64,000 nucleotides of DNA from Protoeuglena noctilucae. Lineage: Eukaryota. The position numbers and the translations under genes were made by a program. The stretch spans positions 1 through 64,000 of the forward strand of contig OY253686.1 in the NCBI GenBank assembly GCA_958009085.1, written 5' to 3'. Positions 6,501 through 56,140 of this stretch are shown here, piece after piece (position 1 is the first letter of the stretch; each line of letters begins with the position of its first letter). The notes beneath the pieces are model-generated. The model worked only from the letters and a program-made list of their open reading frames with translations. It searched no databases and was not told where the DNA came from.

Positions 6501-9500
6501 ACCAGCTGCAGCTCCCCGCGGCGCTTAAGCTCAAAGCCCTTGACCTCCGCCAGGCTGCCGTCTGTAGGGGTGTGGGGGGGCGGGGGTGTGGGATCAGCAA
6601 GGTGGGGCGGAGCGGGGCTGGGATAGCAGCCGCAGCGTGCACATCGTACCGAAGTTGAACACGGCGTAGCGCTTCTTGATGAGCTTGCCCTCTTGCTGCG
6701 ACGCCGGCAGCACCATGGCTTTGTACGGCCCATCCACCTCGAACTCGATAGACATCTCCTGAGGAGGGAAGACAGGTGAGTAAGGGTGTCAGCGCAGGTG
6801 GCCACTGCGCACCCCTGACAGGCAAGGCTGTGGTGTCACTCGTCGCCCCCCTCTCGCGCCCCGCCCGTCACCGTGGTGGTCTGGTAGATCTTGCGCTCGC
6901 GGTCCACGAGGGTCTGGTACTGGGAGTTGGTGTTGTTGGCAGCCGTGACGCGGTTGAGCATGCTGCAGGGGTAGGAAATCTGCAGGCAAGAGAGCGAGGG
7001 TGTCATGGTGGGTGAAGCGTGGATGTGGGGGTGGCACGTGCGCATCATGCGCCCCCGCCGTGCGCCGCTTGCCTTGAATCCCTTGCCCCCCTTGGTTGCG
7101 AGCTTGAACTCCCCCGGGAAGGACGCCGGCAGCGCGACCCAGATGCCGTCGGTGTCGAGCTCGAGGGGGCGCCCGAGCTTGCTGCAGAGGGCGTTGGCGA
7201 CGCTGATGATCTTGGCGCCCGTGTGGGTGACGACGCCGGCCATCTCCATGGAGTACCACCGCGCGCCCTTGCGCATGACGTAGCCGTAGAAGGAGTTGAG
7301 GATGCACTTGTGCGCCAGCTGCAGGGACTCGTACAGAACCACCATGTCGGACGCCTCCTGCACCACCAGGGCACCTGAGGGGGAGGGAGAGCGAGACGGA
7401 TGACGATGTAGATGCTTGGACCCTCGCCAGCCACTGCGCCTTTGATGCGTCGCGTGACAGCCCCTCTCGCCAGCCCCTGCACCCTCGCTGCACTGCATCG
7501 CGTGCCGGCCCCCTGCACCCTCGCTGCATCGGGTGCTAGGCCTCACCTGCCCCCTGCGCCCTCGCCGCGTCGAGCTTCCCCGCCCACTCCTTGGTGAGGC
7601 GCTTGTACACATACCGCCTGTCCCGGAACGCCCGCACCGTGTCGATGTAGAAGGAGTTCTCCCGCATGCACACACCCGCGTCGCGCCGCTGCTCCACGGG
7701 CTTGTCCAGCACTGCAGGCAGTCGGCGGGATTGGATGCTGTGAGCGACGGCCTGTCATGTGACCGGCGTACCCGCATCACCTGCGCTCCCTCACCCCTCT
7801 TGTACACCTTCTGGCAGTATGCCTTGAAGCGCTCCTTGACCAGGCGACGCTGCTCGTCCAGGGCCAGGTCCTGGAAAGACACCTGGCATGGGGCAGGACA
7901 CGCGTCTGACGTTAACAGTGCCAGCGATGCCACGCAGATGACCATAGAAGGCCATCCATTTGTCAACGTAGCCCTCTCAGCCACTGAGCAGCAGAGCTCC
8001 ACCCCACCACCCCCGCGCGTGTCACCTGTCCCCCTCCCTCTCCCCGGAACACCTCCGACTCCACCTGGGCCTTGACGGCCGCGTACTCGGCACGCGTGGC
8101 GGCGTACGTCTCCCCACGCCACACCCAGTCCATGCGCTTGAGGCACGTCTTGCCCGGCTGGTTGAAGTCGCACGCCGCGCACTGCTCGTCCGTCACCATG
8201 GCGGGGGGCTGCGGGGGAGAGCGGAGGGATGTGAGCGGCGCATCCCGACTGTTATGCAATCACCAATGCCACCCCGCTCTGCCCTGCCCTCGCCTGGAGT
8301 CGGTTGGTGAGGATGATGTTGGGATACATGGCCGACACGTCCAGATGGTACAGCACCGGGCACTCGTCGCGGTTCGGCCGGTCCCTCAGGTCCTCCAGCG
8401 ACGCGCGGATGCGTGCCTTGACGTCCTCCAGGCCCACCACGTCCTCTACCGACGCCTTGCCCTCGTGCTGCACCGCGTACTGCATGTCCTCGTCCAGGTT
8501 GTCGATCAGCTCCTGGTAGCCCTGGGGGCGCGAGAGGGGGACAGGGCGCGTCACAGTGAGAAAGGGTGGAGGGGTCAAGTGCGGCTTGTTTGCCTGCGAC
8601 AGGGCGGCCAGCACATGCGCTGCCACCACCGCAGTCACCACCCCGCCCGTCCCTCTCACCGCGGGGGAGCACCGGAACCGCAGGGGTATGTCTGCGCGGA
8701 AGATGCCTGACTCGATGGCCTCGACCTTGCCCCCGATGTACGTCTCGGCCTCGAGCAGGCGGTTGTCGAAGTAGCGCTCATGGGGCGTGACGTGCTTGTT
8801 GGGGGCCACCACCCCGGCACGGTATGCCTCAACCATCAGCAGCATCTCGCACAGCGTGCCCGACCCCTTGCGGAGGACCTCGTCGGGGGCCATGGGGATG
8901 ATGGTGCAGAGGGAGAAGATGAAGGGGTGGATGTACTTCATGTACAGGTAGTAGGTCGCCACTGCGAGCGCGAGAGAGTCAGCAACCGTGTTGGGAGTGT
9001 CACCTATCCCTGCCAGGCACCGCACGCCAACGCTTGCATACATGGGCCCCTCCATTCCCGTCTCCTCCCCAGCCCATACCCATGCCAGCCATGCCCAGCG
9101 TCCCTCACCGGCGTCTGACACCGAGTAGGATGCCATGGTCTGTGGTCTCTCCGCCGCCATGCGCACCATGTCCTCGGGGGGCACCTCCATGGGGTTGTAC
9201 CCCAGCTTGGCGCGGGTGACGGCCTTGAGGCCCCGGGACCCCTGGGGTAGGTACGAGTCGCGGTTGACCCAGTGCATGCAGTCCATGTGGAGGGCAGCAC
9301 GGCTCAGGCACTCCCCGCCGCCCTCCTTGATCCTGCGGGCAGCAGGTGGGAGGGGGTAAGCGCGGTCAAAGCACAGCAGCACTCCCACAGGGCTGCCACG
9401 CCTGCAAGCGGTGGGAAGGCGCAATCTGCCATGGCTGCGTGGCCGTCTCACTTGAACCCGAGGGACTGGTGCATGTCGATGCCGTGGCGCTCCGACCGCG

Positions 9501-17306: not shown

Positions 17307-20300
17307 ATGATGAGCCCCTGGCTCGCCGTCATCACGGTTTTGTGGGGACTGGTGGTATTACTCGTCCAGCAGTCCAAGTGGGCCGAGCAGAAGTCGAAAA
17401 GGGCCAAGTCCGCCCGAGGTAACGAAGACACATAGCGTGGGCGTAACGCATTTACCACGGTGCAAAACAGAAACGTGCTTGTTACATGTCATGAAATGAT
17501 GCCCGGTGCTTCCCACGCAGGCCGATATGAAATCTCCTCCCACGAGACCGTCTTGATGGTTAAGAAAATGAACGACTGGCTGAAGATCCCCAACAACGTC
17601 AAGAAGGGATACTGCATGGTCAAGCCCCCGTGGGTGGGGGTGGCCTCATGGAAGGCTGGCCGTCGTACCATCGGCGTGAGGCGTGGTGGACCAAGAGAAC
17701 CGAGCTTTGTTTCTCGCTGCTTCTGGGTGAGCGCTAGTGTTGGCATGTTCTCAACTTGCCACTTGCGCTGACGTCGGGTCCATCGGCGGGCGACAAGACA
17801 ACCCGTCCTCCTTGCCATCACAGACCATGGTGACGCCCGTCACAGCACTGTTCAAGATTCCGGCCATCTTATGGAAAGCATGCTCTCCCATCCCTGCTAA
17901 AATCGAGGACTGTCCGTCCAGCACCGGAGATGATGCCACACCGCATTGTGCACCCACGTCTTCCAATCTCGCCCCGGATGAGCTGGGGGACGCCCAGGTA
18001 AAACGTCGTGCGGGGCGGGAATATAATGATGACTCTCCTTAAACATGCTTTGCTTTTTTCTAATTCTCTTACTGCGTCCCTTAACGGCGTGCACCAACTG
18101 CGCCGCAGAGGACCAAGAACGTGTGGCAGCGTTTCCAGACATTCGGCAACCGACGCTTCAAATGCACGTCTGCGTGCTGGCAAAGGGTTGCAGCTGGCGG
18201 TGCGGCAGTGACGTGGGTATTAAGGCGAGTGCGCAGCGCAGAAAAAGTTTGGTTTACGTTCCATTTAAAATAATAAATTTATTACATGTTCAAAATAAGT
18301 AGGACGTGGTAAATAAGAGTGCATCTCTACATGGTGTTCTTGTCGGGAATGCCACACAATGGCAAATAGAAGTTGTTGTTGAGTGCATTTCAGGGTGGGG
18401 AAATTCACGTCTTCACGTCATACGTTGACGATTACCATAGTCACGGGACACAATTGATTAATTACAATGTACTTCATCACACCATTAAAAGCGTGACGCA
18501 CATGAGATCGTGGGCATCACGTCTTATATTACCAGGGTTATGGTAGGGCATGCATGTTCTATAGCTCTGGCATTTGGAGCCAAGAGCTCCACGCCTTTAT
18601 AGTAACTTCCACACCTAGACACGTAATAAAGTAGTTTTTAATTATAAGAACGACCAACAAATGCTTCTCTTCTTCTCACAGGGTCATGCAAGTCGGGACG
18701 GGAATTGACATCGCGCGATCTTCGGTTCAGAAACTAATTGACCGGTCATGCAGTTCAAGCGGAGGTCCTGGCGATGGCGGCAATGCGAATGCTCCCCAGA
18801 GAATCACCCTTCAGTTTGACCTCTACGTCGTGCATGGTGAGACTAGGGGTACGACTTTATGCCCCTACTCCGCCGAGACTTAGCGCCCTAATTGACTGCT
18901 TTCTGCACACAAGTCACAGTCCTGTATAACAAGACTATAACATCCTCGCCCACCGTTGTGACTGCAGAAAACCGGCGGATGAGGACGAGGCAATGCCACG
19001 TGTTAAACTTCCCTCGGCGAGTACATGTCAATGGCAAGACTTTCAGGAGGCGTGAGACTAAAGACCTCAATGGACCCCCGCGCTGTGGAGGCTGGGTGGA
19101 CTTTTTCTGTTCATGGATGCGAAAGACGCACGTGGACATTGACAAGAACTTCATCGATAACTCATATCTCCGCGACGAGGTCAAGGAGGCGGTCCACTTT
19201 TCGTTTGCTGTCGTTTACGTGGAGGAGCGCGTCTCTTCCAGGGCTCCTTCCCCCGTCACCACCATCACCCTCAACGTCGCGAACTTCATTCCGCCCCCAG
19301 CCAAGTCGGCTGCCACGTCGGCCAAGCTCACCATCGACAGCGCCACCGCTTGCAACTGTGCGGGCGGCGCCCCGTCCCCAGCCACGTCGGCCGCTCCGGC
19401 CGGGCTTGAAGCGCCGATTCCCACTGCATGTGAGGAGGCGCCGGGGGGAATGGGGTTGAGGGGAGGTACGCCCAATGTGGCGCATGCATCTACTCTGACG
19501 CTGGACAGCCAAAGGAGCCCTCCTCCACGGCGCAAGAGGAAGAATATGGGAAACACGTGCTATCGAAACGCGGTGTTCCAAGCTCTCGCTTCCTTCCACA
19601 TCTTTCTAAACGCACTTGAGCGAGCGGTAAATGGATCTTACGACGGATGCCTTAAAGCTAAGCTGAAGCAATTGATCGACGACCATGTGGGGGATGTTTT
19701 GGAACCAGACGACAGTGTTATTGTGGAGGGCACGGACTTCGATAATCCTGGAATGCACGACGCGCCCCAGTTCTTTGAGGCAGTGGTGAGTAGCCTACGA
19801 GTGCTGTTTCGGTATCCGGGACCTTGTATCCCGTATCCTTGTATTGTATCCTTGTATTTGCCCTAGCCCACGTATGCGCAGCAATATATCCACGACAGCC
19901 CATGCATCCTTCTCGCAGATTGAGAAGATCGATGACAAAAGCATCGCAGATTGCTTCAAAATATGGACTGTAACGACGTCTACCTGTCAATGCGGTCATG
20001 AGACCAGTCGTCGGGACGAATTGTGGGTGCAAAGGTGAGCTGCTTCTGGTTGTATTATTTACAATTATCCAATTTTTGGAGATGTGTTTAATGCAAGTAT
20101 AGTCTGCAGTCTTTACTTTGAAATAAAACCATAATATATATATTATTATGTGAGTTAAAGTCTTTCTAAAATGTAAATAATACTGTTATGGATTTTGTGG
20201 AATTCCTTAAGCCTTGAATGTGCTTGCAGGGTCCCACTTCTCGTGCTTGACACATCTATCGACTGGCATGAACTTCAAGATCTGGTCAGTGACAAGCACA

Positions 20301-23300
20301 CCGGCGGCACGGCAAGGAGATGCGTCAAGTGCGGCAACTTCGAAGAGCACACGGAGGTGGAGACATTTCACGCATCGGACGTACTGGCCCTGCAACTGCT
20401 GCGCTTCGAAAGTGAGTATGATAGTGTGGCTTGGAGGGTAAATAAAGAGCATATACCCCCCTGCATTTTACGCCTGCGTTTACGGCCACCATATGTCAGA
20501 ATATACTCCCCGGCACTTTTGCCACCGCAGTGGATGGTAACACGTCTCGGAAGAAGATGGATCGTGTGTCCCTTCCAGATATGCTGACCTTTTCAGGGGG
20601 CAATTACGTTCTCACGGCTGTTGTTCACCATTATGGAGATGGCACTGATACTGGGCACTTCGTGACGTCTTTCCGCGTGGAGGGGGACAGATGGGGATGC
20701 GCCGATGACGACAACGTCGGGTGGACAGACGAGCACAAAGTCAAGTCTCAGAGTGACTCTTGCTACCTTGTCTTCTACGTCAAGGAGTGCGACACAACGA
20801 ACCCTCCTAATCCCACCATCGTTCAGGCAAGAAGATATAATATTGCAGATTTCCGAGCGCTGATACTTGCCATGTGTGTCTTCATAGCAGTAACGCAAAA
20901 AAGTTTTTCAAAATAGAAAACTTTCATGCTATATTTATTATCAATTACAGCCATTTAGCTTGTGCAGACATCCTGACTTACATAATAGCCTATTGCTGTC
21001 CCCCAATAGTACCAATCCGTGTCCGTCAGATGCACGCATCTCACTTATGGCTTCTACGACATCTCCCAAGGATTGGGGCATTCCTCCCCCATCTTAACAA
21101 CTGTCCACAAGTGTTTGTATCAAAATATGTATTCATTTCTGCGCAACTCCGCACGCAGCCACGGTCCACCACGGCAAGGAGACATACTTGCTCCATGAGT
21201 GACAACAGTGACATGGAAATGAGCGAAGAGGTCCTCTGCCAAGGAGGAGGTGAGCAATTTGTGTAACCTACTATTTATGAGCGATTTAATAGTAGTAAAC
21301 AAACTTACAATTACTTTGTATTTTTCTTCATACATTTTGGTTGCTCAAACAACTTCTAGCAGCGGAAAATTCGATTTTCATCAGCTTTGCATAAACGAGT
21401 TTGTGACGTTATTTAAAACCTCCACGCAACATTTGCACACAACGACGTCATCCCACATACCACTTCCTGTCTCAAATACAAATACATGGTTACTGCCACA
21501 CCCGCAGTCAATGGGGACACCGACCGACAACCGGATGCTATAGCCGGTGAGAGGATGGGCCGGCAGGTGGAGACGTGGGACGCGGAGAACGTCGCGGGCA
21601 TGTGGGTGGCCACGAGCGCGGTTGCGGGAGCGGGACCGAATGTCTGAGCTTGAGAGTGGGTCGCAAGCGCGCCCGAAGCAGCACTGAGAGCGAGGCTGAC
21701 CCACAGCAATCACTGTCGGCGAGTCATGGGCGCGGTCATGGGCGTGGGCGTCGGACGGGCAACTTGGTGGACGTCAAGGGCCGCAAGTGTGGCCGCGAGT
21801 GTGGCGTGGACGGGTGCAAAGTGCGCCCCAGCTTTGGGATCAAGGGTCGCCCAGCCACGCGCTGCGCAAGGCACAAGACGGACGACATGGCGAGAGTCCG
21901 GAACCGCGAGTGTGGCGTGGACGGGTGCACAACGCAGCCCCGCTTTGGGATCAATGGTTGCCCAGCCACGCGCTGCGCAAGGCACAAGACGGACGACATG
22001 ATGGACGCCCGGAGCCGCAAGTGTGGCGTGGACGGGTGCACAACGCAGCCCAGCTTTGGGATCAAGGGTCGCCCAGCCACGCGCTGCGCAAGGCATAAGA
22101 CGGACGACATGGTGGACGCCCGGGGCCGCGAGTGTGGCGTGGACGGGTGCACAACGCAGCCCCACTTTGGGATCGAGGGTCACCCAGCCACGCGCTGCGC
22201 AAGGCACAAGACGGACGACATGGTGAACGTCTTGAGCTGCGAGTGTGGCGTGGACGGCTGCACAACGCACCCCAGCTTCGGGATCGAGGGTTGCCCAGCC
22301 ACGCGCTGCGCAAGGCACAAGACGGACGACATGGCGAACGTCCTGAGCCGCAAGTGTGGCGTGGACGGGTGCACAACGCAGCCCAGCTTTGGGATCAAGG
22401 GTTGCCCAGCCACGCGCTGCGCAAGGCACAAGACGGACGACATGGTGAACGTCCTGAGCCGCAAGTGTGGCGAGGACGGGTGCAAAGTGCGCCCCAGCTT
22501 TGGGCCTGAGGGTGGCCCGGCCACGCGCTGCGCAATGCACAAGACGGACGACATGGTGAACGTCCTGAGCCGCGAGTGTGGCGTGGACGGGTGCAAAGTG
22601 CGCCCCAGCTTTGGGCCTGAGGGTGGCCCGGCCACGCGCTGCGCAATGCACAAGACGGACGACATGGTGGACGTCCGGGGCGGCAAGTGTACCCACCCGA
22701 ACTGTGCAGCCAAGAAACCTTTGTGGGGAAAGCTGAGGAAAGACGGCAAGCCAGACCGTGGGAAACGGTATTGCAACGATCACTACGACTGGGAACCAGG
22801 TCTTATCAACTTGGCTGAACACATGCGGGACCGCGAGTGCCGCCGGCTCAGTGACCTAACGGACAGTGCGGCCGACGACCTGGATGCCCTACCCAAGGCA
22901 CACAAGGACGAGATCGTGGCAAAGATTGTGGCGTGGGTGCGTGAAGTGCTGCGGGTGCACAAGCACGCATCCATCTACATTTGCGTTTCGCACTGGTTTC
23001 GTATCATAGAAGAGATTGGGCGGACGCCATTCACGAACGGCTACTTTGTGGACGAGGGCGGCAACCCGCTCACCACCAAGGACCTGTCCCTTGCCAAGGC
23101 CATCAATGACCTTGGGGCCAAGCAGGAGGTGCTGGCGGTGACAGTCCGCCCCGAAGATGCCAATGACATCGAGAAGGCGGTGCACCAACAGCTCCACTAT
23201 GAGTTGACGCCTCGACTTTCTGCTGATGATCGTCCGGATGGGCACCGCCTTTGGCGCAAGGAGGGGACGGGTGGCACTCGGGTGCCGCGGCTCATCCCAC

Positions 23301-23845
23301 CGGAGGTCGCCCGCAGGTGTGTCAGATACGTAGTCGGGGCATTTGTCATCCCCGACGGGGACCCACCTAGCACGGCGTTTGCTCTCAGTGGAAAGGACAC
23401 TGACCTGCACGAGGCCGCTCAGAGGGCCAGGGCAAACCACTACCAACCCTTACAGCGCGTGGTGCACTTGCCCGTTCCCCCGCTCTCCTACCTGCCCGCT
23501 GGGATATCTCGGCAGATTGGTGGCGGGCGCGTGCTACCTGATACAGCCGCACACAGCAACAAGCTGCGCCAGCTCATGGTCAAGATCGGCACAGATGGGC
23601 TTCCGATGTACTTGCGGTTGCGCGCATTCGTCTCAGCCACGGGAACGGAGACCGAAAGGGATGATGTCGAGGAAGAGAGTGCCAACTCGGACGAGGACAT
23701 TGATTTGGAGGCAGCGCTTGAAGAACAGGACGATGCTGGCATGGACGAAGAGTCGGGGTCTGGTGCCGAGGACATGGACGAGTGGCACGACACGGAGGCG
23801 GGGCCGAGCAATGGGGAGGCAACCTCATGGGAGAAGCCCAATTGA
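17307..23845 (+). CDS. Multi-exon protein: hydrophobic N-terminus, MATH-like domain, USP (C19) deubiquitinase, EsV-1-7-type repeats, GIY-YIG-like domain, acidic tail
   Basis: Phase-consistent exons: 18682-18836, 18968-19785, 19919-20034, 20230-20411, 20531-20826 (GC donor), 21159-21249, 21508-21566, 21707-23845. Probable upstream exons: 17307-17418, 17521-17726, 17824-17997, about 18111-18199 (this junction is ambiguous). USP motifs: NMGNTCY, MHDAPQFF, LQLLRF, VVHHYG...GHF, W-x3-DDDNV, CYLVFY. Confidence 0.72.
21797..22684 (+). repeat. Coding tandem repeat, 8 x 111 bp (37 aa), EsV-1-7-type Cys/His repeat
   Basis: Units start at 21797, 21908, 22019, 22130, 22241, 22352, 22463 and 22574. Consensus CGVDGCxxxPSFGxxGxPATRCARHKTDDMVxV; a divergent ninth unit starts at 22685. 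Confidence 0.93.
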
Positions 23846-26553: not shown

Positions 26554-29500
26554 TCACAGCACTTCGTAGTCATCCGGCACGACCTGGTTGCCGCGGGGCT
26601 GGGGAGCCCCCTCCCCGCCCCGGGTGCCGGGCCGCGACGCCGTGGCCGACCCAGCCCCCGACCCAGCGCCAGACGCAGCCCCTGACCCGGCCCCCGACCC
26701 TGCCCCGGCCTTTGCCCCAAGCTGGGCCTGCGCGCCCGAGGGCCCGGCGGCGGCGGCCGGTGGCGCGGCGGCCCTGGCGGACGCGTTGGCCGCGACGAGG
26801 AACCCCTCCTCCTCAAATTCGTCCGGGATGGGCGGCGGCACCCACTCGAAGAAGTCGGGCTCGCCCGGGTCGACCCATGCGCCCTCGTCGAGGAGCTGCT
26901 GGACCTGGACGGCGAGGGCCAGCGTGGCGGTGCGCTGGATGTCGAGGATGGCCCGTGCGCGCTGGGGGTCGAGCGTCTCGACGTAGCGGAGGATGAGGAG
27001 GTAGCGGTGGCAGTTGCGGGCCGTGGAGCCCCGCTGCTCCACCACGCGGTCGACCAGCTCGGGGACCTCCAGGTAGTTGTCCGTGAGCCACTCGTCGTAC
27101 ATCCACTTGCGCAGGGCGGCGGCGCGGCGCACGGCGTCCCGTGCCAGCACCACCGGCTCCACCACGGCCGCGATGGCCGAGGGGCGCGGGTCGCCCTCGT
27201 CCTGCACCCCGCGCGCGCCCAGGGCGTCGAGGAAGCCCAGGAGCCCCGCGGGCATCTCGGCGGCCATGCGCGCGAGGTGGGCGTACGGGTTGCCGCCCAG
27301 GGCGTCCACGTAGCGGCAGAGCTTGGTGTAGCGCCGCGCCTGGGCGACCGTCATGCCGGCGTCGCAGGCGGCCAGCTGCAGGACGGCGTTGACGGCGCGG
27401 GGCTCGTCCGGGTCGACGTCCTCGCTGGCCACCAGCCGCACCGAGTTGGCGTTCCACACGCGCCACACGGCCTCGCGGAAGTCCTTGCCGAGGGCGTTGG
27501 CGCGGCGCAGGTCCACCACGGGCACCAGCTGCTTGAGCAGGCCGGGGAGGGAGGGCGCCTCGCCGGGGTCGCGCCAGGCCAGGGACCGCCTGGCCAGCTC
27601 CACGCGGTGCGCCAGGGCCGAGACGGAGGCGTCGTTGTCGAGGAGCAGGTCGCGGCGCTCCTTGGCGGGCAGCGAGTCCAGGAAGCGCACCAGGGCCAGG
27701 TAGCGGTCGGCCACGGGCACCTCGAGGTCGAGGGCGCGGCAGACCTGGCGGTGCGTGGTGGCTGGGTCGAGGCAGAGCAGCTGGTAGCGCTGCTCCCGCA
27801 GGCGCACCCCCAGCTGGTAGGCCTCCCTCACGATGCGGAGGGCCTCGGCGCCGCGGTCGGCGACGAAGGAGGCCAGGCGCGAGGAGCCGTAGAGGCGCAC
27901 GGCGAAGTAGAGGGCGAGGAGGGCGTTCTCGGCGACGAAGGCGATGAAGAGGCGGGTCCAGACGGTGAGGGTGGTGGAGGTGAAGACGTATGTCTGGAGG
28001 GCGGAGGAGGAGAGGGCGAGGAAGAAGCACTGGTTGATGACGCCCACGACCATGAGGGCCTCGAACGCCACGCGGAAGACGCCGATGCCCGGCCAGCGCT
28101 CCGAGAGGGGACGCTGCGGGAGGGGAGGGGTGGGGGGGTGGTTGCGCTGTCGCTGTTGCTTTCGTGTCCACTCGCGCGGCGCTGTGGCCGTCACGCCCGC
28201 AGCTGGCCGCGGGTCCCTGGCCGCCCGCTGCTTACCTGCGTGACGCGGTTGAACTTCCACACGTCCATCTGCGCGACCGCGAACATGGAGAGGAGGAGCG
28301 CGACGGCGGACAGCGACCACGCGGACCCGAACGACATGAACACCGCCAGCTGCACGAGGACGCTGGAGAACTCCACCGAGTACTCGCTCGTCGTGGCGAG
28401 GATCTCCCCGCGAAGCTTCTCCTGCACCTCGTCCTCGAGGCCCGCGGCCAGGAGGTCGCCTGGGGGGGTGGGGGTGAGGGAGGTGGTTGAGGTGGGTCAG
28501 GCAAAAACAAGCACGCAGCTGTAAAGGCCCAAGCACTTTAACACGCCTACTTTCCGCACTCACCCGTCTCGGCGAGGTCCTCGTCGTTCCCCATGCCCAT
28601 GCCCATGCCCATGCCCATGCCGCCCCCCGCCTCGGCCAGCGCCCCCGGCCCCCCCTCCGCGTCCGCCCCCGCCTTGTCCGCCTCGGGGGTGCCCTTGGCG
28701 GCGATCCTCTCGACGTCCGCGCGCGCCACGCGCTTCCCCCGCGCGCCCAGCCAGGGCAGGGCGTACTCGATGAGCAGGGCCAGGACCTGCCCCACCACCA
28801 CGATGGCGGCCAGGGTGGCGGCCGTGAGGTCGAAGTCGCGCTTGTAGTAGGCGAAGTAGTAGAGGGACGCGGTGCTGTTGAGGTACTGGAACGTGACCAG
28901 CTTGATCGCCAGGGATGTGTCGTGCTCGTACACGGTGCCGAAGTTCTCGCGGTACGTGAGCCACACGGCCACGCGCTCCCACAGGGCGTTGAGGGTGAAG
29001 ATGGCGAGGGCGTTAGCGGCGGTGGTGGCGTAGAGGGCCGCGGTGCCGTAGTAGTTGCGGGTGCGGGTGAGGGGGTTGTTGAAGTTGTGGTGGAGCTTGG
29101 GGTCGTTGTCGATCAGGCCGATGACCACGACCACGATGGCCCAGGCGGAGAAGAGCGCGGCGGCGGCGGCGAGGAGCCAGGCGGCGACGGAGGCGCAGAT
29201 CCACTGCACGCGCGCCTTGAGCATGGCGGGGGTGGTGACGGGGACGTACTGCCAGGCGTTGTTGACGTACAGGCGCCTGACCACGGCCGTGGACGCCGGG
29301 TTGGGCGTCTTGGGGTACTCGTGGACGGTGTCGAGGCGCCAGCGGAAGCGCAGCTCGGCCTCCTTGGTCGCCCACCCGCGCACCAGCACGGCGGCCCAGA
29401 TCACGCAGACCAGGAAGAAGAAGTAGGCGATGGGGTGGTCGTAGGAGAGCGTGACGGACGTCTTGCCGGTGACCTCGGAGGGGGGGCGCAGGGGCACCCA

Positions 29501-32500
29501 CAAGATGCCGAAGCAGACGGCCCCGGCGGTGGCGGGGACGAGCATGGCGTGGCCGGCGTGGTGCACAAACGCCTCGTAGAAGCCGAGCTTGGATCCGAAG
29601 TACTTGAAGACGGCCTGGAGGGGCCGCAGCATGGCGCGGCGGTCCACGAAAGACCGCATCTGCCGCCGCCAGTACCCCCGCTTGCGCTGGTGGCCGAGGT
29701 TCCAGGCGTCCAGCACCTCCTCCCGGCCCACGTCATCGTGGAGCACCATGAACTTGCGCACGACACGGAGGCGCACGTAGAGGGCCATCTTGATGCCGGC
29801 CGAGCGCACGTCAGCCACGGTGGCGGCACGCCCCTCGACCTTGCCCGCCGCGCCGGCTGTGACGGTGGCGGGGGGGCGGGGGGTGGCGCGGAGGGACGTG
29901 AGGGGCGAGTCGACCATGGGCGCCTCGATGATGTTGAGCAGGATCTGCTGCCGTTCCCCGCGCGTGAAGGGCTGGAACCCCGTGTCGGGGAAGGTGGCGT
30001 GGTCGACGAAGAACTCGGCGGCGTCGGCGCCGGTGCGCTTGGCGCGGAAGCGCATGCGCTCCGCCTCGAGCTGGAGGCGGTAGACGGGGGCGCCCACCCG
30101 CACGAGGAGGTAGTGGCGGACCCCCGTGGCGATGAGCCCCAGGGCCTTCTCCTGGGCCAGGACCGTCTCGACCTGGACGAAGAGCCCCGCGCGCTTGAGC
30201 TTGCGCACGATGGAGTCGCGGTCGACGAGCTGGTGCACGATGCGCTGCTGGCGGACGTCGCGGGGCACGGCGGGCGCCTGGAGCACGCGGTCGCCGATGT
30301 TGGGGCCCGAGGTGGCCACGACCCAGCGCCCCTCGTCGAACACGATGCCGAAGTCGAACACGACCGGGTGGGAGTCGTCGACCACCACGTGCCTGTCCTC
30401 GATGTAGTCGCGGATGAGCTCGGCGATCTCGGGGACGCGCGCGTAGTCGTAGGCGCTGTGGCCCTGGGCGTCGAGGAGCACCTCGGTGTCCCCCGCGCTG
30501 ATGAGCGTGTCCACGCCCTCGAACCAGTTGGACAGCGCCGCGCGGTGCAGGGGGGTGCGCCCCGTCTGCCGCTCGGCCAGGTTGGTGTTGGCGCCTGCGT
30601 TGACCAGCAGCTTCAGCATGCGGAGGTCCGAGTGCGTCACGGCCAGGAAGAGGGGAGTCAGGCCCGCGTTGTCCTGGAGGTCTGCGGGGGAAGGGGGGAG
30701 TAACGCGGCAGTTGAGCATGCGTGGACGCATGACGCCAGCCCACGTTTCGCACGCACCGCCTATGCCACAACGCAGGCATCGCTGCCCTCTGTGTCGACA
30801 AGTTTACCATAGCTCTATCCGCACCGCATTCCGTCTCCCCTCAACCCCCCCCCCCCCATATGCTGCGTCTCACCCAGGTCGAGGTCGAGCTTCATCTCGT
30901 CGTCCAGCAGCATCTCCAGCACCACCTCATTCCCCGGCACCGAGCACGCCTTGTGCAGCACCCCCTGCCCCTCGAAGTCCACCGCCATGGCATCCGCCCC
31001 CAGCTCCAGCAGACGCTTGGCCGTGCGGTACGCGGCCGCCCCGCACGCCACGTGCAGCGCCGTGCACCCGGCCTGGTTGGCGGCGTTGATCTCCGCGGGG
31101 TCCTCGGCGGCGCCCGAGAGCACCTCGTATTCCAGGAACGCGTTGATGGCCATGAAGTTGTCCCCCGCCGCCGCGCAGTGCAGGGGCGTGTCGCCCGCCG
31201 CGTCCCGCAGCGACGTCACCCGCACCGACAGGTGGGGCATCAGCAGCTCCAGGGCCTTGACGTTGCCGCTGGCGGACGCCGTGTGGAGCGGGGTGCGGCC
31301 CTGCCCGTTGCGCATCAGCGGGTCCGCCCCCGCCTCCAGCATGGCCGCCAGCGCCGCCTGCTTCCCGTGCAGCACCGCCATGTCCAGCGCCGTCTCGCCG
31401 CCCTTGCCCTTGAGGCGCGGGTTGGCCCCCCGCGCAAGCAGCTCCCTGACCACGTCCGCGTGCCCCATCTTGGCCGCCAGGTGCAGCGGCGTGGTGGGCC
31501 ACTGCAGCGCGTCTTCCCCGTTCACGTCCAGCCGGTCCACGTCAAGCAGGTGCCGCACCTCGTCCACCTCCCCCGCCTCCGCCGCGCGGTGCAGCGCGTC
31601 CTGGGGGATGAGCTCGAACCCCGGCACCAGGCAGTCGACCAGCGTGCGGTGGCGCAGCACGGCCAGCGAGAACTCGCGCTTGGTCACCAGCTGCTTGGCG
31701 GCGCCGAAGAGCGCGCTCAGCAGCGTCTTGGCCGTGCGGTCGGGGAAGCGAGACTCCTCCGACGCGCCGCCTGGAGGTGGGGGGGAGGGTTGGTGGATCA
31801 CAGACCGCTGCAGGTGGTCTTGGCAGCCAGGCGCGGCACCCACCCAGCCACACCGCTGTCCATGGTGCGTGTTTGTAATTGTAACGAGCAGAGACACGGG
31901 TCAATACAAGCCCACCCCTCGTCTCACCGGCGGCCTTCCCCTGCTTGCGCCGGACCTCCTCCAGCCCCGCCAGCGCCAGGCGCAGCACGTTGTACATGTC
32001 GTCCACCCGCAGCCGGTCCTGCGGCCCCTGCATGTGGTACACCCTCCACGCGAAGTCCAGCAGCTCCGGCACCGTCCCCCGCAGCATGACCGAGTACGCC
32101 TCGCAGAACTCCCGGAAGTCGACGTCGCCGTGGCCGTCGAGGTCGAAGGCCTTGAACAGCTGCTTCTGCAGCACGTGGTTGGTCCATCCCAGCTCCTCCT
32201 CCACCACGCGGTAGAACTGGTTGCCCTGCGCACATACAGGAGGTGATTCGTGGGTGGGGGTTACGGGGCATGGGGGCGGTTAATGGGAGCCGTGCAAGAG
32301 CCGGCGCTGGTCGGCATTGCCTGGCGATGACAATAGCAAGCATAGCAGCGCCCCCCGACTCGCCAGCAAGCGGTCGGCGGTCATGCGCTTGTACGCCAGC
32401 AGGAGCTTGCGCAGTTCGTCCGGATTGAAGTGGGTGGTGTTGTTCTCGAGCAGCTCCTCCAGCAGCTCGTCGGGCGTGCGGCGCAGTCGCCGGTAGGCGT

Positions 32501-51955: not shown

Positions 51956-52345
51956 GTTCACGTTCGCAGCCAAAGTCGGTGCTTTTCCCCCGGTGCGGTG
52001 GCCACGGTGCCGCTGGGTCCGCTGCTGCTCCTCAGCAGCTCAATTCCCCTCCCCGCGACGTCGGATGCGGCGGGGCTGATGCACACGGCAAGTATCTGCG
52101 GGACTCGTGGCGCACCGGACCGTCTTGAGGGTCGGGGCCTGCCCTACCCTGACACGCCAGATGGAACGTGGAGTTCAAGAGCGCAGCCAAGAACTTGGCT
52201 CAACGCGGGAACGGGAGGAGCAACGAGCGCCGAAGCAAGACCAAACGGACGCGACAGCACAGCACAGCACCGCAGCGCAGCGCAAGCAAGGCAACGCATC
52301 CGCCATTCCCATCCCATCCGTCCCGAGTCCCGCCCACCCAGGGAC

Positions 52346-55070
52346 TCAGCACTCCTCCGAGAAAGCATAGAAGACCGGCACGCGGTCCACGGCGCCGACG
52401 CCGGCCGCGCCCGCCAGCGGGTGGCATCCGGCCGAGTCGATCGCAAGGAAGTCACCGACGCGCAGCTCGGGGAGCATCACGCCGCGCGCGACGACGTCCG
52501 GGCGATCGTAAGAAGGCCCGAAGACGTTGGAGGAGCGCTGCTTGGCGTCGGCGGGCAGCGGCTCGAGCGCCGGGTGGGGCAGGGGGCGGCACACGACGCC
52601 GTTCTTGCCCGCAGTCCCCTCTCCCGTCCCGTCCGACACCCAGTACTCGACGGGGGCGTCCTGGCGCGCGCGGCACCCCGAGACCTGGACCACGAGCGTC
52701 GTCACGTGCTGCGCCAGGAAGGCGCCGGGCTCTGCGTGGGCCGAGGGGGCAGTTGCGGTTGGGTCGAGGGTGCCATCGGGGTGTCATGCCGCAGCCGCCA
52801 CTGCATTCGGCATCCCGCACTCACCGGCGATGATCTCGTAGCCCCCATCGGCTGGGAAGTGCAGGTCGAGCGCTGCGTTGAGGGCGGCAGGGACACCCCC
52901 CGCGCTCATGCGGCCCGAGGGGTCCAGGGACAGGGAGAAGCCCCCGCCGATGTCGAGCACCGTCGGGCGCATGCCCCGGGCAGCGGCGTCGTCGAAGGCC
53001 CGGCGGGCGACGACCACCGCGTGCGCGAGGGCGTCCGCATGCATCGCGCCGTCGCCCACGTGCAGCGCCACGCCGGCCAGGGCGAGCCCTGACTCGGCGA
53101 CGGCGTCCAGCAAACCGGGGACGTCCCCCGGCGCTGCGCCCTGGGGCACGGCGCCCTCCTCAGCCGCCACGTCGATGCGCAGCAGCAGCCGGCAGCCGGG
53201 GTGGAGCTGGCGCAGCTTGGCAATCTCCCCGGCGCCGTCGAAGGCCACGAGGTCGACGCCGGTGTGGGCGAGGGCGCGGAGCTCGGCGGGGCGGCGCAGG
53301 GGGTGGGTGAGCACCAGCCGCGAGGCTGGGGCGCCGTGCAGGAGGGCGGCGTCGGCCTCGCGCCTTGAGCGGCAGGCGAACCCGGCCCCGAGGGCGGCGA
53401 GCGTGGCGAGGAGGCCCGGGTCGGCGTTGGCGCGGACGGCGTAGCGCGGGGCCACGCGGGGGAAGGCCTCGCGCCATGCGCGGAGGGCGCGAGCGGCACG
53501 GCCCAGGTCGTGGAGGCAGAAGGAGTCCTCCAGGGCCCTCTCGGGGAGCAGGCGCGACAGGAGGGCGTCGACAGCGGCGCGGGACCCGGAGGGCAGCGGC
53601 TCGGCACCCAGGGTGGCCAGCACACGCGCCAGGCCGGGGGCAGCGTCGGGGGTGCTGAGGCGGGCGGCGGCGTGGGTGAGGCGCGGGGAGGGCGGGGAGC
53701 CCTTGGGGGAGCCTGCGGGGGGAAGGGAGGGTAGGGGACGTGTGAGACAGCGACGTGAGACGGCCAGACGTGGGGGACGGATGAGCAGGCGAGATGCGTC
53801 AAGGTGACGTTAGGCAGGAGAGCATGTGAATGAGGCAACACCGTCGCCGCGCCCAGCCCTGCATCCGCGTCTCACCCGGGAGGTAGACGGGCGTGGCCGT
53901 GTCGCGGGAGGGCACCTCGGTGGGCGCGGGCACTCCGAGGTTGGTGTCGCGGATGAGGCGCTCGATGCCGCGGGGGGCCGCGGGGCAAGACCCGGCGAGG
54001 GCGGAGGGGTCCTCGAGGGCGAAGCGCAGGTAGGCGACGCGCCCGCCGCACCCGAGGGTCTGCAGGGAGACACCGTCGGGGCGGTAGCCGGGCGGGGCAG
54101 GGAACGTGAGCGGCAGCGCCTCCCAGGCGTCGGCGCCGTCCGCGTCCGTGGTGAGCGTGACGAAGAGGCTGCCCGGGAGGAACACCCCCGCGCACCCCGC
54201 CACCATGCCGGCCACGTCGAGGTCGGCCGGGTCCCAGTTGGATGCCTCGCAGCTGGCGTACGACGCCTGGGGCTCGGGGGTCACGTGGATGGTGCAGAAG
54301 CCGTCCTTCCAGAGCCCGTTCATGGAGTAGCCGCAGGGATCGAACACGTAATCGTCGATGTCGGCGTGGGGGAACAACGCACGCACGCCCGTCCGCTCGG
54401 TGCACTCCTTGGCGGACTCCCCGGGGAAGATGCGGCGGAAGCCGTCGGCCTGCGCGCGGCCCAGCTCCGTCATGCACACCTCCAAGGAGTAGCCGGGGCG
54501 GCGGGAGGCGGGCGAGGGGCTGCGCTCGCGGTCCGCCACGAACACGTGCCATTGCAGGCCGCGGCGGGCGTCCCCCAGCACGTAGGAGCGGGGCCCGTCG
54601 CCCAGGGACTCGAAGCGCGCGGTGAGGAAGGCGACCTCGGCGTCCCAGTCCTGGTACAGCGCCGGCTGCTGCTCCGGGAAGAGGAAGGACGCCCGGGAGT
54701 AGCGCACCCGGCGCAGGCGCAGGCCCAGGGCCTCGGCGGCGGCGGCGGCGGGGGCGGCGGCGGAGAGGAGCCGCGTGGTGCCGCACGTCTTGAGGACGAA
54801 CTTGTCCGCGTAGATGAAGAGGGAGGACTCGGAGAGCACGTACGCGTCGAAGGCGGCGCACGACCGCACCGACACGACCGTGCAGGCGGCCAGGTCCATG
54901 AGGGCGTCCACCTCGGAGCGCGGGAGGGCGCGCAGGCCGCGGGGGTCCGCGCCGGGGCCCATGTCGAAGTCGAGCTCCACCCGCTTCTCGCTGCCCTCGA
55001 ACAGCGGGGCGGGGAAGACGTCGTCCAGAGCGGGGACGAAGCCCTCCGCGGGAAAAGACGCCGCCATCAT
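52346..55070 (-). CDS. SAMDC: S-adenosylmethionine decarboxylase fused to a degenerate ornithine decarboxylase-like domain (822 aa)
   Basis: Exons 55070-53876, 53712-52825 and 52731-52346 join in phase with GT-AG. AdoMetDC motifs: FEGSEKR, LSESSLF, LKTCGTT, PCGYSMNG, TIHVTPE. ODC-fold motifs: YAVRAN, LHVG, LDIGGGF, IIAEPG, VFGPSYD. Confidence 0.92.
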
Positions 55071-55271
55071 GCTGAACGCGAGAGAAGACTGCGGGCGGCG
55101 GGAGTGCAAAAGGCGCTCGGGGCAGGGGAATTGAAAACGAAGCATGCGCAGCCGAATGCGAGCGCGTGTGCGCCCCACCTGCGCCTAGCTGGCGGGAGAA
55201 CCGGGCAGAGAGTCCGGCTCAAGATAAATGTTGTGGGAATTTGCTTGTCGATCTACAACCCCGTGGGGATG

Positions 55272-56140
55272 TTAGCTCGGGCGCTTCACGACCTGCGGCC
55301 ACAGAACCGGGCGGAGCGTCGTCAGCCGGCGGGGCATACGGACGAGGCGAGCGCACGCCCGTGCGAGACCGACGCCGACGCGGCGCTTGCGCCCCCGACA
55401 TGCCGGCGCGCGCGCACACTTATCCCCAGCCACACACCCGGCGAGGCCAGGACCGCGGCGGCCTCGACGCGCGATATAGCGGGCTCCCAACATGCGCGCG
55501 GGCACATCGGCGACCAAACACCATCGCACGCGGGGGAGACAAGCGCGCAGGGGGCCGCGCGGGCCCGGGGGGCCGCAGGCAGCCCTACCCGCCCCCGATG
55601 GCGCCGCGCCCTCCCCGCAAGGCGCATCCGAAACCCCGGCATGCAGGCAGCGGCTACATCATAGAATGTGCACGTAGGGCCGGCCGGGGGCCCAGGCAAG
55701 GGCGGCAGGGGATGGGGGAGCGCGCCGGGCCCTACGAGCGGCGCTGCGGCGCCCCTCACGTCGAACGCGGAGGCGTTCTTGAACTTCTTCCCGAGTCCCC
55801 ACGGGCGAACGTCGGCGATGAGCTCGGAGAACCCTGCGGGGTGGAAAGGCCCAGAACCCGCTCGGTGGCGCTTCCCAGGCGCGGGGAATGGCCCGACGGC
55901 GACTGAATATGCCCCCATTCCATCCACCGAGACATCGGCCGATGCGCGGCGCGCGCCGCGCCGCTTGTGGCGGCCAGGGTGGGGGGGGCAGCCTGCCGAG
56001 GCCACCGCCGCAAGCGCGCGCGGAGGAATGGGGAAGAGACCATTTAGCTGCGCGCCCCCCGACCCACCAGTCAGCTGGGCCCTCCGGAAGGACTTAAACA
56101 CGCGGCGAGAGAGTTTCGTGCTACCAGTCACAGATGGCAT
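55272..56140 (-). CDS. Conserved-peptide uORF (AdoMetDC leader peptide), three exons, 55 aa
   Basis: Exons 56140-56068, 55833-55760 and 55292-55272 give MPSVTGSTKLSRRVFKSFRRAQLTGFSELIADVRPWGLGKKFKNASAFDVVKRPS*. This resembles the plant SAMDC small uORF (GYSIEDVRP.GGIKKF....KPS*). Confidence 0.88.

Follow-up and report, generated by a model that had tools for sequence, protein, structure and literature searches.

The window analysed here, a stretch of 64,000 nucleotides from Protoeuglena noctilucae (contig OY253686.1, positions 1 to 64,000), carries on its minus strand, from position 55070 down to 52346, a gene that joins an S-adenosylmethionine decarboxylase (AdoMetDC) to the fold of an ornithine decarboxylase (ODC) in one polypeptide. 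The gene is best explained as encoding a working AdoMetDC, whose self-cleavage and catalytic motifs are all in place. The ODC half, to judge from its residues, is not an active decarboxylase of the pyridoxal 5'-phosphate (PLP) type. We propose, tentatively and as something close to an even call, that this non-catalytic domain acts in cis and that the AdoMetDC half depends on it, a role that we infer from the arguments given below. An earlier note, made from the letters of this DNA, had described such a fusion, and its observation is confirmed, as one spliced messenger RNA joins the AdoMetDC to the dead ODC fold. All features of the gene described below lie on the minus strand and are numbered by their position in the window, which is eukaryotic, GC-rich DNA (62-74% GC across most 2-kb bins).

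The coding sequence starts with the ATG at 55070 and ends with the TGA stop at 52348-52346; it comprises 2469 nucleotides and encodes 822 amino acids in frame, with a single terminal stop. Coding exon 1 (53876..55070), which is supported by the open reading frame and by RNA contigs, contains the start codon and the AdoMetDC domain and runs on into the beginning of the linker. It is followed by coding intron 1 (53713..53875, 163 nt), which lies within the linker, and by coding exon 2 (52825..53712), in which the Pro/Ser-rich linker leads into the ODC-like alpha/beta barrel (Pfam match 52826-53497). Coding intron 2 (52732..52824, 93 nt) interrupts the Glu codon of an EPGA motif, and coding exon 3 (52346..52731) encodes the ODC-like C-terminal sheet domain (Pfam match 52427-52588). 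Both introns have GT..AG borders.

We then looked at the transcript. Thirteen sequencing runs from four studies contain the stretch, one of them being perhaps the source of the window DNA, and four were aligned in detail. Two of these, X8 and X10, are samples of one metatranscriptome study, and X2 is a DNA-type run of the named organism. The RNA contigs of X8 and X10 precisely omit 53875-53713 and 52824-52732, so that the junction 53876/53712, for which the earlier note had called for an RNA check, is spliced exactly as predicted. The unspliced form, with intron 1 retained, was found in X2, and unspliced sequence was also found in part of X7. A single 3067-nt contig of X10 covers the 5' leader, the AdoMetDC and ODC halves and the 3' end. 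Contigs of X7 and X8 end with a poly(A) tail at 52162, visible on the plus strand as loose ends of 22 and 9 T, and this addition site delimits a 3' untranslated region (UTR) at 52162..52345. The idea that transcripts might stop before the ODC exons can be set aside, since the polyadenylated RNA contigs include both halves. In the aligned runs no variant letters were listed over the gene. This evidence consists of assembled contigs from one study and informs on the presence and structure of the transcript, not on its expression level. An 8005-nt contig of X2 meets the gene by 21-22 letters only (53059-53080 and 53420-53440) and then continues into unlike sequence; its joint (skipping 339, with a side of 21) is probably a chance or low-complexity join.

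The AdoMetDC domain (54021..55004, residues 23-350) was matched by Pfam SAM_decarbox (PF01536) with 279.9 bits and an E-value of 3.6e-83, the curated cut-off being 22.2 bits, and this half aligns with the potato (1mhm, 8.8e-47) and human (1jl0, 7.6e-45) enzymes. The LSESS sequence, residues 79-83, aligns to the human cleavage site and is invariant in all 30 aligned fusions; within it, Glu81-Ser82 (54825..54830) is the predicted proenzyme self-cleavage site with the serine precursor of the pyruvoyl group. The FEGSEK, KTCGTT, PCGYSMNG and TIHVTPE sequences are all present as well, and are invariant or nearly so in the same 30 fusions. We take the corresponding family motifs (FEGxEK, KTCGT, PCGYSMN and TIHVTPE) to hold the processing and catalytic residues of AdoMetDC. 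The motifs that the earlier note had named (LSESSLF, TCG, YSMN and TIHVTPE) are among them. The GC content at third codon positions (GC3) of this half is 0.97. A GCC-rich run at 54702-54774 encodes an alanine tract in the AdoMetDC half; it was passed over as a repeat when the sequencing runs were aligned, and several contigs break there.

The second half of the protein is recognizable as an ODC along both of its domains. It matches Pfam Orn_Arg_deC_N (PF02784, 144.3 bits, 5.6e-42) and Orn_DAP_Arg_deC (PF00278, 29.7 bits, 7.7e-7); exon 2 aligns with mouse (3.5e-37) and human (6.3e-36) ODC, and exon 3 with the C-terminal domain of the PBCV-1 decarboxylase (5.4e-9) and of Trypanosoma brucei ODC (1.7e-7). 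An AlphaFold2 model of exon 2 alone has a mean predicted local distance difference test (pLDDT) score of 88.2, with disorder confined to the first 21 linker residues, and its best structural matches are enzymes of the ODC family (template modelling scores of 0.69-0.79).

Using human numbering and the animal-type ODC P0097 as a ruler, we scored 19 positions that serve the cofactor, catalysis, the substrate or the interface. Active enzymes read K D E R K H S G G G E R D C D G Y F N at these sites, and the window reads R A E R - H D G G G E A - Y D G H V G. This amounts to ten losses (K69, D88, K169, S200, R277, D332, C360, Y389, F397 and N398) and nine retained sites, the pocket residues among the latter being E94, R154, H197, the GGG loop (G235-237), E274 and D361. 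The lysine that forms the Schiff base with PLP, K69, is replaced by Arg (codon CGC, 53432..53434), and the catalytic cysteine C360 by Tyr (codon TAC, 52508..52510), which turns GPTCD into GPSYD. Among the cofactor ligands, D88 (53375..53377) and R277 (52721..52723, EPGR turned into EPGA) have become Ala, S200 Asp and Y389 His. The earlier note had listed the changes at K69 and C360, the FACRS and EPGA sequences and the replaced DG..YGSF loop, and each of them was found as claimed, the alignment to active ODCs giving Arg at K69 and Tyr at C360. To that list we add the deletion of the YDHA motif with the substrate-binding D332, the shortening of the K169 loop, the changes of S200 and Y389, and the loss of F397 and N398. 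There are three window-specific insertions or deletions, all in frame: a deletion of 4 amino acids in the K169 loop, an insertion of 3 amino acids after D320-G321 and a deletion of 7 amino acids that takes out Y331, D332 and H333. All three sit in active-site loops (the K169 loop and the 320-334 loop).

The best explanation of these changes is that the ODC half can no longer bind PLP or its substrate, lacks the general-acid cysteine and has given up most of the canonical dimer interface; with both kinds of binding and the cysteine gone, it is predicted to make no putrescine. As to the interface, PMC4139326 names, in one part of its text, nine residues, of which eight are conserved among 94 active relatives; six of these eight positions are lost in the window (169, 277, 322, 331, 332 and 389). 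A passage of the same source reports that a human ODC quadruple mutant at positions 331, 389, 277 and 332 has a dimer dissociation constant 100-fold above that of a double mutant. Since most of the canonical interface positions are lost, an ODC-type dimer of the usual kind, whether of the domain with itself or with a real ODC, appears doubtful.

We next asked how common such fusions are. When the AdoMetDC half was used to look for longer proteins, 122 matches came back, and nearly all of the 120 listed have the three Pfam domains. Their sources include Micractinium, Myrmecia, Nannochloris, Trebouxia, Coccomyxa, Elliptochloris, Cymbomonas, Ulva, Auxenochlorella, Tetraselmis, Apatococcus, Bryopsis, Closterium, Adiantum and Calypogeia, and cluster look-ups extend the fusion to Picocystis, Chloropicon, Ostreobium, Mesotaenium and Dolichomastix. 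The AdoMetDC-ODC fusion is common in green algae and some streptophytes, and is not in itself novel. Our protein searches, made in the direction of the algal survey that the earlier note suggested, return the fusion widely and mostly with a complete ODC: all 19 sites are kept in 94 of the 114 compared rows, and the K69 column is K in all 94. In the 150 best-matching representatives out of 1.84 billion proteins, together with the others retrieved by then, K69 was replaced only in the window and in the cluster P0099/P0155. An exhaustive search of the 1.84 billion representatives gave none closer than 49% identity to exon 2, and a word search with P0155 gave no additional dead copy.

The closest relative, P0241 (845 aa), is one of the 94 with a complete ODC active site (19/19). 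Compared with the window protein, its AdoMetDC half is 65% identical, its linker 45% and its ODC half 48%. P0241 is poorer in residues with GC-type codons, which suggests that it belongs to another genome rather than being a paralogue. In the tree of AdoMetDC plus linker, the window and P0241 are sisters with a support of 100 and branches of 0.35 and 0.49, respectively. In the ODC tree the window falls in the same small group as P0241, which includes Tetraselmis (support 96), with a branch of 2.02 against 0.71 for P0241. These trees place the ODC half of the window as a descendant of the active ODC half of a green-algal bifunctional AdoMetDC-ODC. Judging from these branch lengths, the ODC half has been freed of part of its constraint since the split from P0241, and the AdoMetDC half has not.

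The dead domain of P0155 (640 aa, N-terminally cut) is joined to an intact AdoMetDC C-terminal half and carries K69R, D88A, H197Q, E274Q and D361G. Its AdoMetDC half groups with Micractinium, Nannochloris and Auxenochlorella (support 96-97), and the AdoMetDC plus linker data reject a clade of the window with P0155 (log-likelihood difference of 86.7, p 0.0002 in the approximately unbiased (AU) test). From the AdoMetDC half, we read the two as independent losses of ODC. A first ODC tree had paired them with a support of 91, but omitting either one moved both, and they separated once P0241 was added; we read that pairing as long-branch attraction with parallel changes.

Twelve further fusions have K69 replaced (P0333-P0340 and P0342-P0345, of which P0342 is labelled Eucheuma denticulatum, a red alga), and the ten that were compared share 25-67% pairwise identity. 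Most of the twelve retain the AdoMetDC motifs, GPTCD and FNGF; the ODC barrel is largely degenerate, yet C360, D361, F397 and N398 are kept in most of them. In addition, the Ulva mutabilis model P0267 has intact AdoMetDC motifs, has lost K69 and is degenerate throughout its ODC domain, and may be a further independent dead copy or the product of an error in the gene model. These proteins raise the broader possibility, somewhat doubtful at present, that the algal ODC half became a pseudoenzyme several times independently, each time kept at or near full length as an essential non-catalytic "prozyme in cis". The lineages concerned would be that of the window, a Chlorellales-type lineage, apparently Ulva, and the diverse group that includes a red alga. 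Against such repeated origins, the ODC data taken alone are compatible with a single origin of the dead domains of the window and P0155 (AU p 0.285).

We then considered whether the ODC half is kept or decaying, the earlier note having proposed that it is retained as a regulatory module. The 370 ODC codons are free of stops and frameshifts, and similarity to ODC reaches the last residues. Codon periodicity is preserved: the ODC parts of exons 2 and 3 have GC3 values of 0.93 and 0.92 and values at second positions (GC2) of 0.55 and 0.52, whereas introns and UTRs range from 0.54 to 0.79 at any phase. As a further measure we used 90 columns that are at least 95% conserved in the 94 active relatives. 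The window lost 40 of these and P0155 lost 41, with 26 losses and 35 retentions in common; this overlap of losses corresponds to an odds ratio of 4.3 (p 0.0009), or 3.4 (p 0.016) without the residues that have AT-type codons. The columns that are retained are mostly structural glycines, prolines and core residues. Retention as a regulatory module is plausible in view of the frame, the codon periodicity and the structural positions shared with P0155; the faster evolution of the domain and its drift toward GC-rich residues speak against it.

What kind of role such a domain could play is narrowed by the sites it has lost. The earlier note had offered a polyamine or ornithine sensor, an allosteric activator, or a partner for the real ODC. 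A sensor of the canonical kind, for ornithine, putrescine or PLP, is unlikely with D332, K69, D88, R277, S200 and Y389 gone, and the partnership with a real ODC is weakened by the loss of six of the eight conserved interface positions. Because a canonical sensor is unlikely and an ODC-type dimer doubtful, what remains is a role within its own chain. The C-terminal 370 residues are an ODC-derived pseudoenzyme domain. In the scheme that we propose, the AdoMetDC half would have grown dependent on the ODC half while both were active, and the dead ODC would then have been kept as a folded module for the folding, stability or allosteric tuning of AdoMetDC in cis. Recurrence supports this reading, as the ten compared diverse fusions and the Ulva model keep the AdoMetDC motifs with K69 lost. 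Precedents for such cross-talk exist. The two domains of the Plasmodium falciparum enzyme influence each other, according to a passage of PMC3253432, the ODC domain having a lowering effect on AdoMetDC activity and the AdoMetDC domain a stimulating one on ODC. Human spermine synthase, as a section of PMC2811004 states, relies on a dead AdoMetDC-like domain to form dimers and to be active.

A serious rival, unlikely in our estimate, is that the ODC half is a vestige: ODC catalysis would have become dispensable, putrescine being supplied by another gene or route or by uptake, and the domain would have no positive role. Its persistence would then be explained by the cost of removing it, since partial truncations or frameshifts would burden an essential AdoMetDC with a tail that misfolds, and clean deletions seldom occur. 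Several observations favour a vestige and weigh against a dependent module. The constraint on the long ODC branch is relaxed, the ODC domain evolving about 3-4 times faster than both its active sister and its own AdoMetDC half. Its composition has drifted toward residues with GC-rich codons, Gly, Ala, Arg and Pro making up 45% of the dead half against 40% of its own AdoMetDC half and 31% of the P0241 ODC half, and its GC3 is slightly below that of the AdoMetDC half. Conserved non-catalytic columns have been lost nearly as often as catalytic ones, 25 of 35 non-catalytic invariant columns being kept against 9 of 19 catalytic ones, a difference that is not significant (p 0.14). Scans of metagenome contigs gave no DNA of a close relative from which a ratio of nonsynonymous to synonymous rates (dN/dS) could be taken. 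What a vestige explains poorly is the frame still intact over 370 codons with the C-terminal similarity preserved, the low, coding-like GC2, and the same subset of structural columns kept by P0155, a dead copy that appears to be independently derived. Neither does it readily account for several lineages keeping their dead domains at or near full length, including ten proteins as diverse as 25-67% identical.

Action in trans is quite unlikely in our view. Here the protein would pair with another, active enzyme, either a separate ODC or an AdoMetDC-ODC paralogue, as a dominant-negative subunit, as an activating dead partner of the prozyme type, or as a decoy of the antizyme-inhibitor type. Antizyme is not known from algae, which we count against this reading. 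The active sites of ODC are shared between subunits, as passages of PMC3253432 and PMC4139326 indicate, and the window does retain D134, R294, D361, D364 and G387. The group that includes the red alga, which lost K69 yet keeps the donated C360, D361, F397 and N398, shows a pattern that would suit a dead subunit completing the site of an active partner. In the window, however, donated residues have disappeared as well (C360 replaced by Tyr, F397 and N398 lost), as have six of the eight conserved interface positions. Finally, a new function, in which a remodelled pocket would bind a polyamine, decarboxylated S-adenosylmethionine (dcAdoMet) or an amino acid or would support a PLP-independent activity, is very unlikely: the window-specific changes do cluster in active-site loops and E94, R154, H197, the GGG loop, E274 and D361 are kept, but nothing positive speaks for it, the canonical substrate and cofactor ligands are gone, and P0155 has lost other pocket residues (H197Q, E274Q and D361G), which argues against a common new pocket.

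Looking upstream of the coding sequence, we found a leader that resembles those of plant AdoMetDC genes. The contigs of X8 and X10 extend past 55292, and 30 loose-end letters match 55789-55760. This defines the 3' end, at 55760 with a GT donor, of leader exon 1 (55760..56038), the 5' extent of which is inferred from 279 further RNA contig letters. Leader intron 1 (55293..55759, 467 nt, GT..AG) is followed by leader exon 2 (55179..55292) and by leader intron 2 (55089..55178, 90 nt, GT..AG), whose joint 55088/55179 is present in X8 and X10. An upstream open reading frame (uORF) of 59 codons begins at the ATG at 55918 and is interrupted by leader intron 1: the first 53 codons lie at 55918-55760, and the last six with the TAA stop (55274-55272) at 55292-55272, in leader exon 2. 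It ends with Pro-Ser-stop. From there the mature leader runs for 201 nt up to the main ATG without containing another one. The Pfam AdoMetDC_leader scan (PF08132), which took in 53 of the 59 codons since the intron splits the uORF, gave a weak match (14.9 bits, E 0.024, for a cut-off of 25). By BLASTP, the uORF matched the leader region of the Closterium fusion model P0316 with 9 of 17 residues identical (E 0.001). The leader uORF of plant AdoMetDC is described in a part of PMC2811004 as having about 48-55 codons and a penultimate Pro; the position and the penultimate Pro match here, and 59 codons slightly exceeds the range quoted for land plants. A second uORF of 60 codons, out of frame and with its ATG at 55935, overlaps the first. 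Translation of the AdoMetDC gene is probably controlled by the uORF, and the leader arrangement fits a gene that is regulated as an AdoMetDC.

The remainder of the window contains several unrelated features. Pieces of a DNA polymerase epsilon-like gene lie on the minus strand at 553-2223 and 6839-8251 (zf-DPOE, 7.6e-7; DNA_pol_B, 4.6e-6). In a low-GC island at 18000-22000 (0.50-0.52, the surroundings being at 0.62-0.74), parts of a ubiquitin C-terminal hydrolase-like gene lie at 18892-19863 (E 2.4e-4) and 20530-20916 (E 1.4e-8). On the plus strand, 21551-23842 is an open frame of 764 amino acids with at least 8 EsV-1-7 cysteine-rich motifs (Pfam 2e-87); underlying it is a 111-bp unit repeated in tandem 8.1 times at 21792-22690 (91% matches). 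This frame had prompted the idea of a stramenopile host, which was dropped since both halves of the AdoMetDC-ODC gene nest among chlorophyte fusions. At 28550-30760, on the minus strand, an open frame encodes ankyrin repeats and, after them, a domain of the anoctamin type (calcium-activated chloride channel; 1.4e-36).

As to novelty, a passage of PMC3253432 calls the AdoMetDC/ODC fusion unique to malaria parasites. In the literature searched, which left subscription papers outside, we found no description of the algal AdoMetDC-ODC fusion or of a version with a dead ODC; in databases the fusion appears under names such as "ornithine decarboxylase". The locus illustrates a fusion that is ordinary in green algae and an ODC half that, in some lineages, has turned into a pseudoenzyme in cis. 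The metatranscriptome contigs indicate that the gene is expressed in the sea. The prozyme and the antizyme inhibitor are dead paralogues that act as central regulators of polyamine synthesis in trypanosomes and animals, respectively. If the dead half is needed by AdoMetDC, it would represent a third, independent route of dead-enzyme control in the polyamine pathway, as well as a natural experiment on the interdependence of domains in a bifunctional enzyme. If the ODC half did become a prozyme in cis several times, it would act through allosteric control or assembly, and would uncouple the supply of dcAdoMet from putrescine synthesis. If it is a vestige, the dead half would date a change in the source of putrescine of this alga.

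Compared with known systems, the protein is closest to the fusions of green algae and streptophytes (for example those of Tetraselmis, Micractinium, Trebouxia, Coccomyxa, Auxenochlorella, Picocystis, Chloropicon and Closterium), which have the same order of AdoMetDC, linker and ODC; it departs from them in keeping 9 of the 19 ODC sites, where 94 of the 114 rows keep all. The AdoMetDC/ODC of Plasmodium falciparum likewise carries its AdoMetDC at the N-terminus and its ODC at the C-terminus of a single polypeptide, with a hinge between them, as a passage of PMC3253432 describes; both of its halves are active, however, whereas the ODC half of the window lacks 10 of 19 key sites, and the Plasmodium protein is given there as about 170 kDa with parasite-specific inserts, against 822 amino acids here. 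The antizyme inhibitors (AZIN1 and AZIN2) also have an ODC fold without decarboxylase activity, and AZIN1 structures are among the matches of the ODC half of the window (2e-29). The K69 lysine is still present in AZIN1, and the window has Arg there. Unlike the domain of the window, which is fused to AdoMetDC, an antizyme inhibitor is free-standing and acts by binding antizyme. At positions 277, 331, 332 and 389, which distinguish antizyme inhibitors from ODC according to a part of PMC4139326, the window diverges. The AdoMetDC prozyme of trypanosomatids, as passages of PMC5201418 and PMC6221367 describe it, is a dead paralogue from the polyamine pathway that controls AdoMetDC; it is a dead AdoMetDC that acts in trans as a heterodimer partner, in contrast to a dead ODC fold placed in cis. 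Human spermine synthase differs in its folds and in the pair of enzymes involved, and its dead domain is required, where need for the dead domain of the window is what we propose; like the window protein it combines in cis, as a section of PMC2811004 indicates, an active enzyme of polyamine synthesis with a dead domain of polyamine-enzyme type.

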